Shown: positions 3-46,886, counted from the stretch's first letter. The stretch: 64,000 bases of DNA from Gammaproteobacteria bacterium (GCA_050247235.1 JBFWUN010000012.1:16514-80513); one strand, 5' to 3'. Translations and numbers: made by a program. The notes: a model not told the origin generated them from the letters alone.

Positions 3-2642
3 GTGCTGTCCGACCTCACCGAGACCCTGCTCGCACGCCAGCTCACCCAGCTCGACGGCGTGGGCGAAATCGGCATCACGGGCCAGCGGCGGCCGGCGCT
101 GCGCGTGCAGGTGTGGCCGGACCGGCTCGCCGCGGCCGGACTCACGCTCACCGACGTGCGCCGGGTGCTGCAGGGCGCGAACGTCAACCGTCCGAAAGGC
201 GCGCTGTTCGGCGCACGGCACACGTCCACGCTCGCCACCAACGACCAGCTGTTCGACCCGGGCGCGTATCGCCGGCTGGTGCTCGCGTACCGGGCGGGAT
301 CGCCGGTCCTGCTCGGCGACGTCGCGGAGATCGTGGCCGGCGCGGAGAACGAGTACGTGCAGGCATGGCCCAACGGGCGCCCGGGACTCAATCTCATCAT
401 CCGCCGGCAGCCGGGTGCGAACGTCGTCGCCACCGCGGAACGCATCAAGGCGGCGCTGCCGGCGTTACAGGCAATGCTGCCCGCCGGGATCGAGGTGGAC
501 GTGCTGAACGATCGCACGCGCACCATCCGTGCCTCGCTCGCCGAGGTGGAGCTCGCGCTCAGCGTCAGCGTGGTGCTCGTGATCGGCGTGATGGGCGCGT
601 TCCTGCGCCAGCGCGCAGCCACCGGTATCGTCACGGTGGTGCTGGCGGTGTCCGTGCTGGCGACGCTCGGCGCGATGTACCTTGCGGGTTTCAGCCTGAA
701 CAACCTGACCCTGGTCGCGCTCGTGATCGCGGTGGGCTTCGTCGTGGACGATGCGATCGTCGTGATCGAGAACATCCACCGTCACCTGGAGGCCGGCGCA
801 TCCCGCGAAGAAGCGGCACTGCGCGGCGCGCGCGAGATCGCCTTCACGGTCCTCGCGATCAGCGTATCGCTGGTCGCGGCGTTCATCCCGCTGCTGTTCA
901 TGGGCGACGTGGTGGGCCGGCTGTTCCGCGAATTCGCGCTGACCGTGACGATCGCGGTGCTGGTCTCCGCGCTGGCCGCACTGACCCTCGCGCCCGCGCT
1001 CGCCGGCCGTTTCATGCGGCCGCTGGTGCACGACCCTCATGCCGGCCGGACGTGGCCGGTACGCCTCGCCGATGCGTACGGACGATCGGTCGCGGCGGCG
1101 CTCGATCACCCGCGCGCACTGCTCGCGGCGTTCCTGGTCAGCGTCGCGCTCGCGGTGGCGGGTTACGCGGCAATCCCGAAAGGATTCTTCCCGCTGCAGG
1201 ACACGGCGTTCCTGTTCGGCACCACGCAGGCGGCGGAGGATATCGGCTACCCGGAGATGGTCGCCAAGCACCAGGCGCTCGCGCGCCTCATCGCCGCCGA
1301 CCCGGCCGTGCAGTCGTTCTCGCATTCGGTCGGCGCGACCGGCGGCAGCCAGGGCATGTCGATGGGCCGCTTCTGGCTGGTGCTGAAGGATCGCGATCAG
1401 CGCGACGTGTCGGTATTCGAGCTGATCGAACGCTTGCGGCCGCGGCTCGCCGACGTGCCCGGGATCGCGCTGTACTTCCGCGCCGCGCAGGACATCAACC
1501 TCGGCATCTCGGCGGGGCCGTCGCGCACGCAGTACCAGTACGCGCTGCGCAGCGCCGACAGCGAGGCACTCGCGCGGTGGGCCCGGCGCCTGACCGAACG
1601 CCTGCAGGCGCTGCCCGAGCTGCGTGACGTGTCGAACGATCTGCAGAGGGGGGCGCGCGTGACCGGGCTCGAGATCGATCGTGCCGCGGCGGCGCGGTTC
1701 GGCATCAGCGTCGCCGACATCGATGACGCCCTGTACGACGCCTTCGGTCAGCGGCAGGTCGCGGAGTACCAGACGGAAACCAACCAGTACAAGGTGATTC
1801 TCGAGATCGTACCGACCTTGCGCGGCCGCGCGGACAGTCTCGCGTATTTTCACTTGCGCGCCGGCGCCACCGGCGCACTGGTGCCGCTGTCGGCGCTCGT
1901 GATACCGCAGCCTCCGCGTGCGGGGCCAACGACGATCAGCCACAACGGGATGTTTCCGGCCGTCACGATTTCGCTGAACCTCGCGCCGGATGTCGCGCTC
2001 GGGGACGCGGTACGGCTCATCCATGCCACGGAAGCCGCGCTCGGCATGCCGGCGCAGGTCACGGGCCGGTTTCTCGGCACGGCGCAGGCGTTCCAGAATG
2101 CGCTCGCCACCCAGCCGCTGCTGATCCTCGCGGCAGTGCTCGCCGTCTACATCATCCTGGGCGTGCTCTACGAGAACGCGTGGCACCCGCTGACGATCCT
2201 CTCCACGCTGCCCTCCGCCGGCATCGGCGCGCTGGCCTTCCTGTGGCTGGCGGGTTTCGATTTTTCGATCATGGCCCTGATCGGTGTGGTGCTGCTGATC
2301 GGCATCGTGAAGAAGAACGGCATCCTGCTGGTGGATTTCGCGCTGGCCGCGCAGCGCACGCAGGGACTCGGGGCACGCGCGGCAATCGAGCAGGCCTGCC
2401 GCGTGCGCTTCCGGCCCATCATGATGACGACGATCGCCGCGATGCTCGGCGCCGTGCCGCTGATGATCGGCGGCGGCACCGGCGCCGAACTGCGCCAGCC
2501 GCTCGGCTACGCGGTGTTCGGGGGACTGCTCGTCAGCCAGGTGCTGACCCTCTACACCACCCCCGTGGTTTACCTGTGGCTCGCGCGCTGGACGGGCACC
2601 TTGCGCGCCAGCGCTGCGGACGAGGCTCCCCAGGGAAGGTGA
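3..2642 (+). CDS. RND efflux permease (AcrB/AcrD/AcrF family, MdtB/MdtC-like), 5' truncated by window edge
   Basis: Motifs SLNNLTLVALVIAVGFVVDDAIVVIENI, GIVKKNGILLVDFA, RFRPIMMTT, ELRQPLGYAVFGGL; two TM bundles with periplasmic domains. Confidence 0.93.
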   Translation: MLSDLTETLLARQLTQLDGVGEIGITGQRRPALRVQVWPDRLAAAGLTLTDVRRVLQGANVNRPKGALFGARHTSTLATNDQLFDPGAYRRLVLAYRAGSPVLLGDVAEIVAGAENEYVQAWPNGRPGLNLIIRRQPGANVVATAERIKAALPALQAMLPAGIEVDVLNDRTRTIRASLAEVELALSVSVVLVIGVMGAFLRQRAATGIVTVVLAVSVLATLGAMYLAGFSLNNLTLVALVIAVGFVVDDAIVVIENIHRHLEAGASREEAALRGAREIAFTVLAISVSLVAAFIPLLFMGDVVGRLFREFALTVTIAVLVSALAALTLAPALAGRFMRPLVHDPHAGRTWPVRLADAYGRSVAAALDHPRALLAAFLVSVALAVAGYAAIPKGFFPLQDTAFLFGTTQAAEDIGYPEMVAKHQALARLIAADPAVQSFSHSVGATGGSQGMSMGRFWLVLKDRDQRDVSVFELIERLRPRLADVPGIALYFRAAQDINLGISAGPSRTQYQYALRSADSEALARWARRLTERLQALPELRDVSNDLQRGARVTGLEIDRAAAARFGISVADIDDALYDAFGQRQVAEYQTETNQYKVILEIVPTLRGRADSLAYFHLRAGATGALVPLSALVIPQPPRAGPTTISHNGMFPAVTISLNLAPDVALGDAVRLIHATEAALGMPAQVTGRFLGTAQAFQNALATQPLLILAAVLAVYIILGVLYENAWHPLTILSTLPSAGIGALAFLWLAGFDFSIMALIGVVLLIGIVKKNGILLVDFALAAQRTQGLGARAAIEQACRVRFRPIMMTTIAAMLGAVPLMIGGGTGAELRQPLGYAVFGGLLVSQVLTLYTTPVVYLWLARWTGTLRASAADEAPQGR

Positions 2643-2844
2643 ATCGGGTTGCCAGAGATGCGTCGGGGTTTCATGCGACGGGGCCCTGCTGCAGTCGCGA
2701 AGCGTAGCCCCGAAGTACTGGGAGCGTGCCGCGGAAGCGGGCATGATCGTGACCGGAACCGGATCAGATCAAGTGGCGCGAAAGGCGTTGCCGCAACGTG
2801 CCCGATGCGCCGCTCGCAACCAGCGGCAGGAGTTGTTCAGGCGC

Positions 2845-3453
2845 ATGGCAGCCATGCTAGAGGTACCACGTCCGCGCACGCGGGCATCGCCGCTGTTCAT
2901 TGTGGCGATGGGGGTTTCGGCCGTCGTCGTGGTCGTGGCCGCCCGGATCTTCCCGGCTCTCGCGGACGAGAACCACACGCTGGAAAACCTGCAGGTGGCG
3001 TTGCTGCTCTGCGCTGCGGCCGGGCAGGTCTGGCGGGCTGAGCGCATCCGCGGGGAACAGGAGTACCAGCGGACGCTCGCGGTGCTGCTCGCGTTCCTGT
3101 GTCTGGCGTGTGCGCTGCGTGAGCTCGACATCGACCGGCTCGGCGCGCGCGCGTTCTTCGAACCGTTCGAGACGACCTTGCGGGCGCTGACACTGGGCAG
3201 TATCGCCACCTACGTGTACACACGGTTCCGTGCCGTGCTGCTGCTGCTGCGCGAACCCCGCGCGACTCTGCAGGACCCGGTCGGGCGACTGACCATCGCG
3301 GGTGTCGTGCTCTATTGCCTGTCCTGGCCGCTCGACAAGAAGCTCGCGCCGCTTGGCGAGCGCGCGTCACTGTTGCTGGAGGAATGGCTCGAACTCTGGG
3401 CGTGCGCTTCGTTTTTCCTCGCGGCGTGCGTGCGACCGCGCACCGGGGGGTGA
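2845..3453 (+). CDS. Hypothetical polytopic membrane protein
   Basis: About 200 aa ORF with several hydrophobic segments and GC3-biased codons. Start chosen at ATG 2845 (AGGAG upstream); the ORF track starts at 2743. Confidence 0.65.
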   Translation: MAAMLEVPRPRTRASPLFIVAMGVSAVVVVVAARIFPALADENHTLENLQVALLLCAAAGQVWRAERIRGEQEYQRTLAVLLAFLCLACALRELDIDRLGARAFFEPFETTLRALTLGSIATYVYTRFRAVLLLLREPRATLQDPVGRLTIAGVVLYCLSWPLDKKLAPLGERASLLLEEWLELWACASFFLAACVRPRTGG

Positions 3454-12862: not shown

Positions 12863-12938
<76 letters not shown>

Positions 12939-43645: not shown

Positions 43646-45132
43646 TCGGCGGTCGCCCAGTGGCCAGCGCGCACGATGGCCTTCTCCCAGCGGGCACGCA
43701 GCCCGGTGGTGTCGCACGCGGGATCGGGGGCGAACGCGGCGGCCTCGTCCCGGGTGGCCACGACGAGCGTGGCGCGGTCACGCCAGGTGCCGACACCAAG
43801 CCCCGCGAGCGCTGCCGCGCCGCGCGCGGTGGTTTCCAGGTCCCGCGGCTGGCGCAGGCTGCGCCCGAGGAGATCCGCCTGCAGTTGCATCAGCAGCCGG
43901 TTGCGCGACGCGCCGCCGTCGACCCGCAGTTCACCGGTCGGGGCGCCGGTGTCCTGCGCCATCGCGACGAGCACGTCATGAACCTGCAGTGCGATGGCCT
44001 CCAGCGCAGCGCGCGCAATGTGCGCGCGGGTCGTGCCGCGCGTGAGACCGATCAGGAGCCCGCGCGCGTCGGCGTCCCAGTGCGGCGCGCCGAGGCCGGT
44101 GAAGGCGGGAACGAGCACCACGCCGCCGCTGTCCGGCACCGAGGCGGCGAGTGGTTCGATTTCGTTCGCGTCCGCGATGATGCCCAGGCCGTCGCGCAGC
44201 CATTGCACGATCGCGCCGCCCATGAACACGCTGCCTTCGACGGCGAACGCACGCTCGCCGCCGATGGCGCTCGCCACGGTGGTCAGCAGGCGCGCCCGCG
44301 ACGGCACGATGCGGGGGCCCGTCTGCTGCAGGATGAAGCAGCCCGTGCCGTAAGTGCACTTCGCGTCACCGGGCGCGAAACACCCCTGTCCGAACAACGC
44401 GGCCTGCTGGTCACCCGCGATGCCGGCGATCGGCGCCCGCACCCCCGGCAACGCGTTCGTCTCCGCCAGGATCCCGCTCGAATCGACGATGCGCGGCAGG
44501 ATCTCGCGCGGGATGTCCCACAGCGCCAGCAAGTCATCGTCCCAGTCGCCGCGGGCGAGATCGTAGAGCAGGGTGCGTGACGCGTTCGTCGCGTCGGTGA
44601 CGTGCAGCCGGCCGCCGGTGAGCTGCCAGGTCAGCCAGGTATCGATGGTGCCGGCCGCGAGTTCGCCGTGGGCCGCCGCGCCGCGTGCGCCGGCACAGTG
44701 GTCGAGCAGCCACGCGAGCTTGCTCGCGCTGAAGTACGGATCGAGCACCAGCCCCGTGCGCCGCTGCAGGTCGGGCTCGTGACCGGACTCGCGCAGCGCG
44801 GTGCATGCCGCCGCCGTGCGCCGGTCCTGCCATACCAGCGCACGATGCAGCGGTTCACCGGTGCGCCGGTTCCACAGCACCACGGTCTCGCGCTGGTTGG
44901 TGATGCCGATGCCGTCGATCGCGCCGGCCGCCACGCCCGCGTCGGCCAGCGCCGCGCACGCCGCGTCGCGTTGTCCGAGCCAGATCTCGCGCGGGTCGTG
45001 TTCCACGAGGCCGGGCGCCGGGAAATGCTGTTGGAGCGGGCGTTGCGCCCGGCCGAGCACGCGCAGCGACGCGTCGTAGACGAACGCGCGCGAACTGGTG
45101 GTGCCCTGGTCGAGCGCGAGCAGGTAGCGCAT
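43642..45132 (-). CDS. glpK: Glycerol kinase
   Basis: [57 protein letters not shown] motifs. Confidence 0.96.
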
Positions 45133-45211
45133 GGCCGCAGTATAAACATCCGGCGTGACCACCTGGCCCTCGTGCCCGTGACGAACGCGAAATCGACTAC
45201 TCAATTTGGGC

Positions 45212-45386
45212 GATGGGCGCCCCAGGGCCGGTCACCGACACTCCGGCGCGTGCACTGGCGGGGAGCCCCACCAGTAACCCTGTTGGGGGCCGGTGCAGAG
45301 ACGCGCGAGTGTTTCCGGGCCGTAAGGTCCGCTTCCCCTTAGTACTGCCTGACCTTGGCGCCCAGGGTTCCCTGGGCGCTCGTTTT
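45212..45386 (+). ncRNA. Candidate structured non-coding RNA or switch-like leader (family not recognised)
   Basis: Nested complementary helices spanning 45238-45312, GNRA hairpin 45317-45330, 5'/3' pairing 45212-45227 with 45370-45384, terminal hairpin plus U-run. G-U pairs and the GNRA loop favour the + strand. Confidence 0.55.
45358..45386 (+). terminator. Intrinsic terminator-like hairpin
   Basis: GCGCCCAGG-GTTC-CCTGGGCGC followed by TCGTTTT. Confidence 0.6.
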
Positions 45387-45515
45387 ACCCGCCACCGTCG
45401 TCACCCCGCGATGCGCCCGCGGGCCCTCCGCTCAAGTTGTCCTGTGCTCCGACGTTAATACCCGGAACGCCCTGCGCGTGGCCTCGTCACGCGTCGCAAT
45501 AAGGACTGCACCGGT

Positions 45516-46886
45516 ATGACCCACGCTGACAGCGCATCCACGGCCTCCACCCCGCGCCTGCCGCGGCTCGAACCCTTCGTAGCCGCGGTTGCCGCGCTGG
45601 GCGCGGGCGCATTGGCGCTCCCGTGGCCGCTGCCGGTCACCGCGGCCTGGGTGGCGCTGATCGGGGTACTGCACGGGCTCGCGCCGCGCACGCGCGCACC
45701 GTTCGCCGACGGTCTGCGCATCACGCTGCTGGCACTCTCGTGGGCCGCCGGGCCCGCGCTCGCCGCGCCGGGTGTCCCCTTGTGGGTGGCCAGTGCCGCC
45801 GCGTGCGTTGCGCTCGCCACCGCGCTCGCGGCGAGTCGCGCACTGCTGGCTGCGGAGCATTCCGCGCGCGCGGCACACGACACGGCGCGGAGCGACCTGG
45901 AACATCGGCTGCGGCAGGCCACCGACGAGGTGGCGCGGCTGCGCATCGATCTGAAGACCGGTCACGACGTGTACCAGCAGATCAGCCAGCAGCTGCAGGA
46001 GACCTCCGACGAGGCGAGCCTGCTGCGCAGCAAGGCGGAGGCGCTGGCCACCACGCTCCAGCGCGTGATGCCCTACGAGATGGAATCCGGCCTGCTCACC
46101 GCCGAGAAATTCAACACGGTGCTCGAGCGCGAAGCGGCCCGCATGCAGCGACAGGAACTCCCGTTGACGATGGTTCTCGTGAAGCTGGACCATTTCGCGG
46201 AATTCGAACGCGGTTATGGCCGGGTGGCATACGAAGCCGTGATCCGGCGCGTGTCCGAGATCCTGCACAAGTCCGGCAACCGTCCGGGTGACGTCGCCGG
46301 GCGCCTCGACGAGCACACTTTCGCCCTGCTGTATCCCGAGGCCGATCATCACAACGGGTTCCGGCTCGCCGAGGCCATCCGGACCCGCCTCGTCCAGCTC
46401 GGCGTCAGGAACGAAGCGTCGCCGCACGGGCTGGTCACCGCCAGTCTCGGCTGCGCGACGGTGCTGCCGAGCGGTGACACGGACGCCGGCACGTTACGCG
46501 AGCGCGCCGAGTCCGCGCTGTACGAAGCAGGTTTCCAGGACGGCAACCGCTGCGTGCGCTACCGCCTCGCGCAGGCCGTGCGGGTCGAACACTGGGACCT
46601 GCAGAACGAAGGCGCGCTGACGCCGGACAGCCTGCGCCACAAGCTCGCCCTGCTCGGGTACTCGGGCAAGCCGCGTCGCCTCGCCCCCGGCGAATCGCAG
46701 CGCGAGCGGCGGGTCGTGATCGATACCGTGAAGGCGATCGTGGAAGGGAACCTCAAGATCTCGCTCGAGGGCGAAGCCCGCATGCTGCGTCCGGGTGACT
46801 GCCTGTACCTCCCCAAGGGCACCGTCACGCGCGAAGAGGTGATCGGCGACAAGCCCGTGATCTGTTTCGAGGGCGTGCTCGCCTGA
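45516..46886 (+). CDS. Membrane protein: TM + coiled coil + degenerate GGDEF (RxxD I-site intact) + cupin-like domain
   Basis: GGDEF scaffold (VTASLGCA, ALYEA, GNRC) with the active site read as DEHTF, preceded by RPGD-x5; C-terminal LRPGDCLYLPKGT cupin strand. Confidence 0.8.
   Translation: MTHADSASTASTPRLPRLEPFVAAVAALGAGALALPWPLPVTAAWVALIGVLHGLAPRTRAPFADGLRITLLALSWAAGPALAAPGVPLWVASAAACVALATALAASRALLAAEHSARAAHDTARSDLEHRLRQATDEVARLRIDLKTGHDVYQQISQQLQETSDEASLLRSKAEALATTLQRVMPYEMESGLLTAEKFNTVLEREAARMQRQELPLTMVLVKLDHFAEFERGYGRVAYEAVIRRVSEILHKSGNRPGDVAGRLDEHTFALLYPEADHHNGFRLAEAIRTRLVQLGVRNEASPHGLVTASLGCATVLPSGDTDAGTLRERAESALYEAGFQDGNRCVRYRLAQAVRVEHWDLQNEGALTPDSLRHKLALLGYSGKPRRLAPGESQRERRVVIDTVKAIVEGNLKISLEGEARMLRPGDCLYLPKGTVTREEVIGDKPVICFEGVLA

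Follow-up and report, generated by a model that had tools for sequence, protein, structure and literature searches.

A probable new family of structured small RNA with a nearly invariant single-stranded block in uncultured Gammaproteobacteria

The gap between two divergent genes of an uncultured gammaproteobacterium raises the question of whether it encodes a functional RNA and, if so, how that RNA acts. The window considered here is the whole 64,000-nt stretch that was analysed (Gammaproteobacteria bacterium, GCA_050247235.1 JBFWUN010000012.1:16514-80513), in which a gap of 383 bp separates the glycerol kinase gene glpK (- strand) from a gene for a GGDEF-cupin membrane protein (+ strand). An earlier sequence-only reading had placed in this gap a structured + strand RNA of about 175 nt, taking it for either a standalone small RNA (sRNA) or a riboswitch or attenuator of the downstream gene. 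Our analysis upholds both the structure and the strand: a structured RNA is encoded on the + strand, and it is very probably a real, independent and expressed sRNA. The proposed extent did not stand, because about 45 nt at the 5' end behave as promoter; the revised sRNA occupies 45250-45386 on the + strand (about 137 nt, from a putative start at G45250 to the end of the U-run). Between the two proposed roles, the standalone sRNA is favoured over the riboswitch or attenuator.

A conserved and covarying fold on the + strand

Twenty-one sequences of the element were collected, that of the window and 20 others (a few of them fragments), all from metagenome-assembled genomes (MAGs) or metagenome contigs and mostly labelled Gammaproteobacteria or Pseudomonadota. 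Loci fetched around glpK homologues yielded three related intergenic regions; scans of the collection with the conserved 3' motif as a DNA pattern gave further members in species-representative genomes and metagenomes; and flanks and look-ups of the GGDEF-cupin protein gave loci L147, L173, L174 and L177. The five closest sequences were made into a covariance model, which matched every full-length member end to end and gave no match in the 12 glpK loci of other lineages tested, and a second model (R2), built on the revised extent 45250-45386, recovered all 21 sequences. The element occurs once in the window and gave one match per contig in the collection scans, and no plasmid or phage match was found for it; on these grounds a miniature inverted-repeat transposable element or other mobile element was ruled out.

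Five helices account for the fold. Over the 17 full-length members pairing in them is 91.5%, and sliding the 3' partners by 1-3 columns lowers it to 33-46%. Changes on both sides affect 32 of the 41 pairs, counted on an alignment that was fitted to the structure and so favours it, and none of 500 shuffles reaches the observed values; the initial model gave the same outcome. Alignments of two subgroups made with MAFFT only predict H1, H2 and H3 in both and S1 in the group A alignment only. The fold energy of the revised RNA (45250-45386) gives z = -2.51 on the + strand and -1.41 on the - strand; for the longer stretch 45205-45395 (191 nt) the values are -1.89 and -0.71, a modest departure from shuffles.

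The complementary segments listed in the sequence-only reading are all present in the DNA at the coordinates it gave, and their fate differs. That reading had nested four helices into one long rod, of which the inner two are conserved and covary and the outer two are not conserved. Its inner helix GCACTGGC (45252-59) / GCCGGTGC (45289-96) corresponds to S1, formed by the 5' strand UGCACUGGC (45251-45259) and the 3' strand GCCGGUGCA (45289-45297). Double-sided changes occur in seven of eight S1 pairs, with the compensatory variants CACAGUGG/CCGUUGUG, UGCGCCGG/CCGGUGCA, UGCACUGG/CCGGUGCA, CCCGGCGG/CCGUCGGG and AAAGCA/UGCUUU; the L107/L174 lineage is without the S1 5' strand. The second inner helix, CCCCACCAG (45266-74) / CTGTTGGGG (45280-88), is retained in eight of its nine pairs as H1, a covarying hairpin CCCCACCAG-UAACC-CUGUUGGGG at 45266-45288 whose length is very variable in relatives (89.9% paired, double changes in 9 of 10 pairs). 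The outer rod, ACACTC/GAGTGT with GCGCGT/ACGCGC, is 49.5% paired across the family, a level that shuffles also give (147 of 500). Its ACACT is part of the -10 box GACACT described below, and its 3' partners instead form the conserved H2 (45298-45315), a hairpin with core ACGC-GCGA-GUGU and a GNRA loop. H2 is 93.7% paired with double changes in seven of eight pairs, the loops of relatives being GNRA, UUCG or GAAA.

The GGGCC-GUAA-GGUCC hairpin with GNRA loop, which had been offered as an alternative, is H3 (45316-45331): it is 98.4% paired, shows double changes in all five pairs and is a long hairpin in other lineages. The competing AAGGTC/GACCTT helix shows no covariation and clashes with H3. 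The fold ends in the intrinsic terminator that had also been recognised from the sequence, a 10-bp G+C-rich stem with loop GUUC (stem-loop 45357-80), followed by CG-UUUU, with the U-run extending to 45386. This terminator is conserved (93.5% paired), with an A-U/G-C exchange at one pair and a compensated form GCGCUCGGG/CCGAGCGC in L174. A nested alternative pairing the RNA 5' end with AGUACUG is part of the minimum-free-energy structure of several members, yet its 3' strand is invariant and its 5' strand uncompensated, whereas S1 covaries; it was rejected.

Transcripts and 3' end

Orthologues of the element are transcribed. At the L097 and L147 orthologues, contigs from RNA runs are confined to the RNA body; in the L097 RNA runs neither flanking gene was matched by a contig of that genome, and the few short pieces on these genes are mismatched. 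In four biofilm metatranscriptomes (28-44 Mb each) the summed contig word depth on the 3' block was about 860-3,300 in three and 84 in the fourth, with single contigs reaching about 1,800 and the flanks at zero. The L097 contigs stop at or shortly after the U-run. In one contig of a relative the sequencing adapter follows directly after the third U of the U-run, and in another RNA run an A-rich tail stands immediately past it, so that the 3' end predicted by the terminator is the one seen in relatives. The orthologue transcripts are thus discrete, precisely terminated and very abundant. Contigs matching the 3' block exactly (L097 5915-5945; L147 1865-1906) are also present in river, wetland, wastewater and sediment RNA runs.

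These data bear on the view that there is no functional RNA at all, the conserved sequence being DNA regulatory sites shared by the promoter of glpK and the divergent one downstream, with the transcript as a by-product. The region does lie between two promoters, and its upstream 45 nt or so are best taken as DNA regulatory sequence. Compensatory changes in five helices are, however, unexpected for DNA sites; the G.U pairs and the T-run fit the + strand only, on which the fold z is also better; and the transcript is discrete, very abundant and precisely terminated. We regard this view as highly improbable.

Probable promoter and 5' end

The RNA was initially modelled from TTTGGGCGATG (45205), and the model was later revised on RNA data. 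The 3' two-thirds of the L097 element occur in at least 10 metatranscriptomic runs, and the contigs of six of the eight runs compared start 51-63 nt into the initial model (four at 56-57). A query with the first 81 nt of the L097 element, which sampled only 4 index words, matched 17 runs, all of them DNA and none RNA. The corresponding part of the locus has the layout of a promoter. An upstream element ACTACTCAA-TTTGGGCGATG (45196-45215, + strand), with an invariant core GGCGAT, is conserved in every member having 5' sequence; it is probably an activator or UP-type site at about -55 to -35. It is followed by the -10 box GACACT (45237-45242, + strand; family consensus TAnACT), in which A2 and T6 are kept in all members but one and which appears in the family as TAGACT, TAGAAT, TACACT, TAAACT or, in L174, TATGAT. 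From the invariant GGCGATG to the -10 box the distance is a constant 20-22 nt, the intervening spacer being variable, and a conserved purine stands 7-8 nt past the box, directly before S1. Because of the contig starts, the occurrence of the first 45 nt or so (45205-45249) in DNA runs only and this promoter-like spacing, 45196-45242 is probably promoter and not RNA, and G45250 is the probable start in the window.

Two pairings that use the upstream region fall with it. A closing stem P1, between 5' UUGGGCG (45206-12) and UGCCUGA (45346-52), is predicted by RNAfold and RNAalifold in most members and is 100% paired with one-sided changes only; it was dropped because its 5' region is found in DNA runs only and keeps a promoter-like fixed spacing to TAnACT. 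The sequence-only reading had let 45212-27 pair with 45370-84 and so compete with the terminator, a proposal that fails in that the 5' segment varies among relatives and probably precedes the transcription start.

Readings of the upstream element as a sigma-54 site, an FNR/CRP site or a Pho box were a poor fit by eye. A scan of the collection for AATTTGGGCGATG-N20-22-TANACT returned known members and chance matches only, and the model found no member among the chance matches. The invariant promoter element (T)GGGCGATG (45205-45215) resembles the 3' arm and tail of the terminator (45374-45382), which read GGGCGCTCG in the window and GGGCGCATG in group B; the likeness may be accidental or may reflect, for example, a common binding site for a protein.

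A likely G-run/C-run pseudoknot

Between S1 and H1 the RNA bulges out a G-run, GGGGAG (45260-45265), and the sequence-only reading had seen that it is complementary to TTCCCC farther downstream, a possible pseudoknot. The pairing, S2, would join G45260-63 to the C-run CCCC at 45335-45338. Its complementarity stands in every member: the G-run has at least four G in all of them, and a C-rich run is kept at the same place in all, at least CCC except in L173 (CCUCU). Covariation is confined to the flanking pairs, because the G- and C-runs hardly vary; there, G.U becomes U-A in L107 and L174, and A-U becomes U-A in L092. The S2 pairs were counted by hand because R2, which treated S2 as a nested helix, aligned the distant members only locally. 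Where S1 is present, S2 would likely be an H-type pseudoknot, a plausible though unproven arrangement to which the conserved complementarity and the flanking double changes point. In the L107/L174 lineage the RNA apparently starts at the G-run, and S2 there serves as the closing helix.

The invariant block and its possible mode of action

Between this folded core and the terminator lies the most constrained part of the element, a nearly invariant single-stranded block of 18 nt, UUAGUACUGCCUGACCUU (45339-45356, + strand), which is a candidate seed or recognition site. All 21 sequences share its portion CUGCCUGAC without a change, and 16 of them share GUACUGCCUGACCUU. The block is kept where every helix is rewritten and where neighbouring proteins are only 40-65% identical, and members found through neighbouring proteins, with no motif search, keep it as well. 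Its mean predicted unpaired probability is 0.32-0.75 and reaches at least 0.57 in 15 of 17 members.

The best overall explanation, held with somewhat less than even confidence, is an independently transcribed, trans-acting sRNA of about 137 nt that works through this single-stranded block. Transcription would begin about 7-8 nt past the TAnACT box, at a fixed distance below TTTGGGCGATG, and would end at the strong intrinsic terminator. The 5' two-thirds would form a compact core in which S1 encloses the bulged G-run and H1, with H2 and H3 following, and the G-run pairs with the C-run in a pseudoknot; the core would supply stability and perhaps a platform for protein binding. The block between core and terminator could then pair in trans with one or more conserved target RNAs, as an SgrS-type seed does. 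We favour seed pairing, tentatively and a shade more cautiously than the overall explanation, because a conserved single-stranded stretch beside the terminator is the usual seed signature in base-pairing sRNAs.

Several points weigh against this explanation. Two of the scans used the block as search pattern, so that part of its invariance is an effect of ascertainment, and the covariation counts carry the bias of the structure-fitted alignment. In a search for target sites of the block, the best in the 64-kb window were unremarkable, and the neighbouring genes, searched at all loci, showed no conserved site. Most base-pairing sRNAs do without a core as elaborate as this one, with its pseudoknot and several hairpins, and in many members the U-tail has only 4 U, a length ill suited to Hfq. 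The window's own sequence was found in no RNA run; the orthologues seen to be expressed all belong to group B, which is more distant. For the putative 5' end the evidence consists of contig ends, the four-word index query and promoter logic; and because the L097 contigs begin at the G-run, a few nucleotides past the putative start, a shorter or processed 5' end is possible.

Some of the same observations would suit an RNA that works by binding protein, its core and block being recognised by a protein or sequestering one, as 6S, CsrB-type and Y RNAs do, and acting by sheer abundance. Abundance in metatranscriptomes is very high compared with neighbouring genes; the core looks tertiary, with its conserved G-run and C-run, GNRA loops and multi-helix junction; the lower terminator stem GCGCCC/GGGCGC is kept in sequence, beyond pairing, in almost all members; and the target search in the 64-kb window and the neighbouring genes had come up empty. 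Against this, the RNA has no repeated protein-binding motifs such as the GGA loops of a CsrA sponge, no 6S-like rod with a central bubble and no similarity to Rfam families, and no partner gene is consistently linked to it, glpK and the c-di-GMP (cyclic di-GMP) effector gene both being separable from the RNA. We consider protein binding unlikely, if well worth keeping in view. A new class of abundant pseudoknotted RNA whose core is itself functional, binding a ligand or a protein in trans as a 6S analogue or as a sensor of glycerol-phosphate or c-di-GMP, receives a similarly low weight.

Relation to the downstream GGDEF-cupin gene

In most loci the GGDEF-cupin gene lies directly downstream of the RNA on the same strand, an arrangement that speaks for a cis-acting device: the core would sense glycerol-3-phosphate or c-di-GMP, and the terminator would gate the gene. 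Such a device would also account for an aptamer-like core complexity followed by a terminator, and one RNA contig does extend 20 nt beyond the U-run. A promoter motif intervenes, however. Between terminator and gene, at 45432-45458 on the + strand, stands TCAAGTTG-N11-GACGTTAA. The consensus for sigma-28 (FliA) is TAAAGTTT-N11-GCCGATAA, and by this likeness the motif looks like a promoter of the flagellar-sigma type. It is conserved in most homologous loci, as CAAAGTCC-N11-GCCGATAT in group B and TCAATTCC-N11-GTCGATAA in L147.

The linkage of RNA and gene also breaks in both directions. An AMP-ligase gene lies downstream of the RNA in L001, and in L107 and L174 the RNA is followed by a ChaC gene and has an Aas-like gene next to it; on the other side, a glycerophosphodiesterase gene replaces glpK upstream in L092. 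Conversely, with search filters off, the RNA was not found in the 1.3-2.5 kb examined upstream of the GGDEF-cupin gene in L175, L176 and L179. No conserved antiterminator was found in the alignments and folds of members, and the 5' segment that had been proposed to compete with the terminator is both variable and absent from RNA runs. One candidate antiterminator, formed by the 5' UUGGGCG strand and the 5' arm of the terminator, was rejected: it finds no support in the G-to-A variants, and its 5' strand is probably untranscribed. No riboswitch family matched, in agreement with the earlier remark that the element fits no known riboswitch consensus. Because of the intervening promoter, the changing neighbours, the gene without the RNA and the lack of a conserved antiterminator, a riboswitch or attenuator role is unlikely, and we give the cis device only a slim chance.

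In L083 and L090 the start codon of the GGDEF-cupin gene stands 7 nt past the sigma-28-like promoter, and because of this spacing the arrangement suggests a leaderless mRNA belonging to the flagellar regulon. In a more distant lineage, that of L175, L176, L179 and L174, the gene belongs to another conserved block, made up in order of an unannotated 254-aa protein, GGDEF-cupin, Fpg and Ada/AraC; this block lacks the RNA, which in L174 is displaced to a place upstream of the ChaC gene.

Neighbouring genes and setting of the locus

The glycerol kinase (FGGY_N/FGGY_C) is encoded on the - strand with its ATG at the complement of 45130-45132, and its gene is preceded by one for a glpD-like FAD oxidoreductase. 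At the glpK start (45130-45144, - strand) a TATACT -10-like hexamer stands 6 nt upstream of the ATG, with no Shine-Dalgarno sequence; because of this arrangement glpK may be translated from a leaderless mRNA. AGTATA adjoining the CAT (+ strand) before glpK is also present in L083, L085, L090, L094 and L100.

The downstream gene (45516-46886, + strand) encodes a 456-aa membrane protein that combines a GGDEF domain with a cupin at its C-terminus. Its GG(D/E)EF motif is degenerate, DEHTF in the window and AEHKF, DRNRF, SVDLF or AKNRF in relatives, and its RxxD inhibitory site (RPGD) is invariant; judging by this combination, the protein would sooner be a receptor of c-di-GMP than a cyclase. The family is uncommon: of 5.8 billion proteins, 43 match at E <= 1e-20.

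Two long open reading frames (ORFs) overlap the RNA and the antisense strand of glpK, one of 246 aa at 44602-45342 and one of 81 aa at 45213-45458 (both +), and neither has family matches; for the 81-aa frame, no Pfam match was found. A small protein gene was rejected here, the 81-aa frame being broken by single-nucleotide indels in the closest relative, L141, and showing large length changes elsewhere. Both ORFs are artefacts of the high G+C content, which is 70% in the window. A tRNA gene at 12866-12938 (- strand; Rfam tRNA, 73.6 bits) is the sole Rfam match in the 64-kb window.

The exact window sequence was found in landfill metagenomes and near relatives in activated sludge; the carrier lineage as a whole was sampled from landfill, wastewater, groundwater, lakes, rivers and biofilms. 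The contigs of L090, L100 and L147 are labelled as Klebsiella pneumoniae, Klebsiella sp. and Hydrogenophaga intermedia MAGs. These labels are probably binning or labelling errors, as gene content and sequence group the three with unclassified gammaproteobacterial contigs. The family is most likely restricted to one lineage of uncultured Gammaproteobacteria. Neither the motif sequence nor an RNA motif linked to glpK turned up in full-text searches of the literature.

Implications

If confirmed, the element would be a new and well-supported structured sRNA family from a lineage so far represented by MAGs and metagenome contigs only. In some biofilm metatranscriptomes the RNA ranks with the most abundant transcripts, and it would explain reads that are now unassigned, of which the 3' block may make up a notable share. 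It also offers a clean case for study, combining a conserved promoter and its upstream element with a likely pseudoknot and a nearly invariant block of 15-18 nt. The RNA recurrently adjoins glycerol catabolism genes and the gene for a degenerate GGDEF receptor that is, by its motif, under flagellar sigma control; these recurring neighbours hint at a connection of carbon status with the control of motility or biofilm formation, without establishing one.

Comparison with known RNA families

At the gathering score, neither the window's element nor any of 16 homologous loci matched an Rfam family, riboswitch families and 6S included, and permissive searches at E <= 10 of the window, L097 and L092 reported neither 6S nor any riboswitch family. 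The window's sole permissive match was to the Burkholderia RNA ncS54 (RF02871), at 22.2 bits against a gathering score of 43; L097 scored 16.3 and L092 22.1 bits, the alignment depending on the G+C-rich terminator. Two distant members, scanned permissively, gave weak, terminator-driven similarities only. As tested at these loci, the element belongs to no Rfam family, and in its working it would come closest to a chromosomally encoded trans-acting sRNA.

A loose likeness to 6S had been noted in the sequence-only reading, and a divergent member of 6S or ncS54 was weighed. Length and abundance are 6S-like, and the ncS54 scores of 22.2 bits in the window and 16-22 in relatives would fit a distant ncS54. 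The likeness to 6S did not hold up, since three members gave no report at E <= 10 and the conserved fold is no rod opened by a central bubble; for ncS54 the scores come to about half of the gathering score and are terminator-driven; and a pseudoknot with three hairpins and a single-stranded block fits neither architecture. Membership in either family is therefore very improbable. What the RNA shares with 6S (RF00013) is the size class (about 135-250 nt across the present family), very high abundance and one copy per locus examined; unlike 6S, it lacks the long rod with central bubble, has its own intrinsic terminator and lies in a different gene neighbourhood. With ncS54, whose model alone in Rfam gave a match below threshold, it shares the GCGCC...GGCGC terminator and U-tail, whereas ncS54 has no counterpart of the core.

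The c-di-GMP-I (RF01051) and c-di-GMP-II (RF01786) terminator riboswitches likewise place a structured element and a terminator upstream of a same-strand GGDEF gene. The present RNA differs from them in that it matches neither model, a sigma-28-like promoter intervenes, no antiterminator is conserved and the gene linkage breaks.

The closest parallel in organisation is with enterobacterial base-pairing sRNAs such as SgrS, whose seed lies near the 3' end beside the terminator. They likewise have their own promoter, divergent from a metabolic or regulatory gene, and a structured 5' part, and conservation in them is highest in a single-stranded stretch directly before an intrinsic terminator. The present RNA nevertheless has no sequence or model similarity to SgrS and no small ORF, its core is pseudoknotted and multi-branched, and many of its U-tails are short. 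As a discovery it resembles the raiA and IMES RNAs, which were also defined by covariation, abundant in environmental RNA, narrow in range and of unknown function when discovered; in contrast to them, it matches none of those Rfam models, is smaller, and has a clear promoter and terminator.

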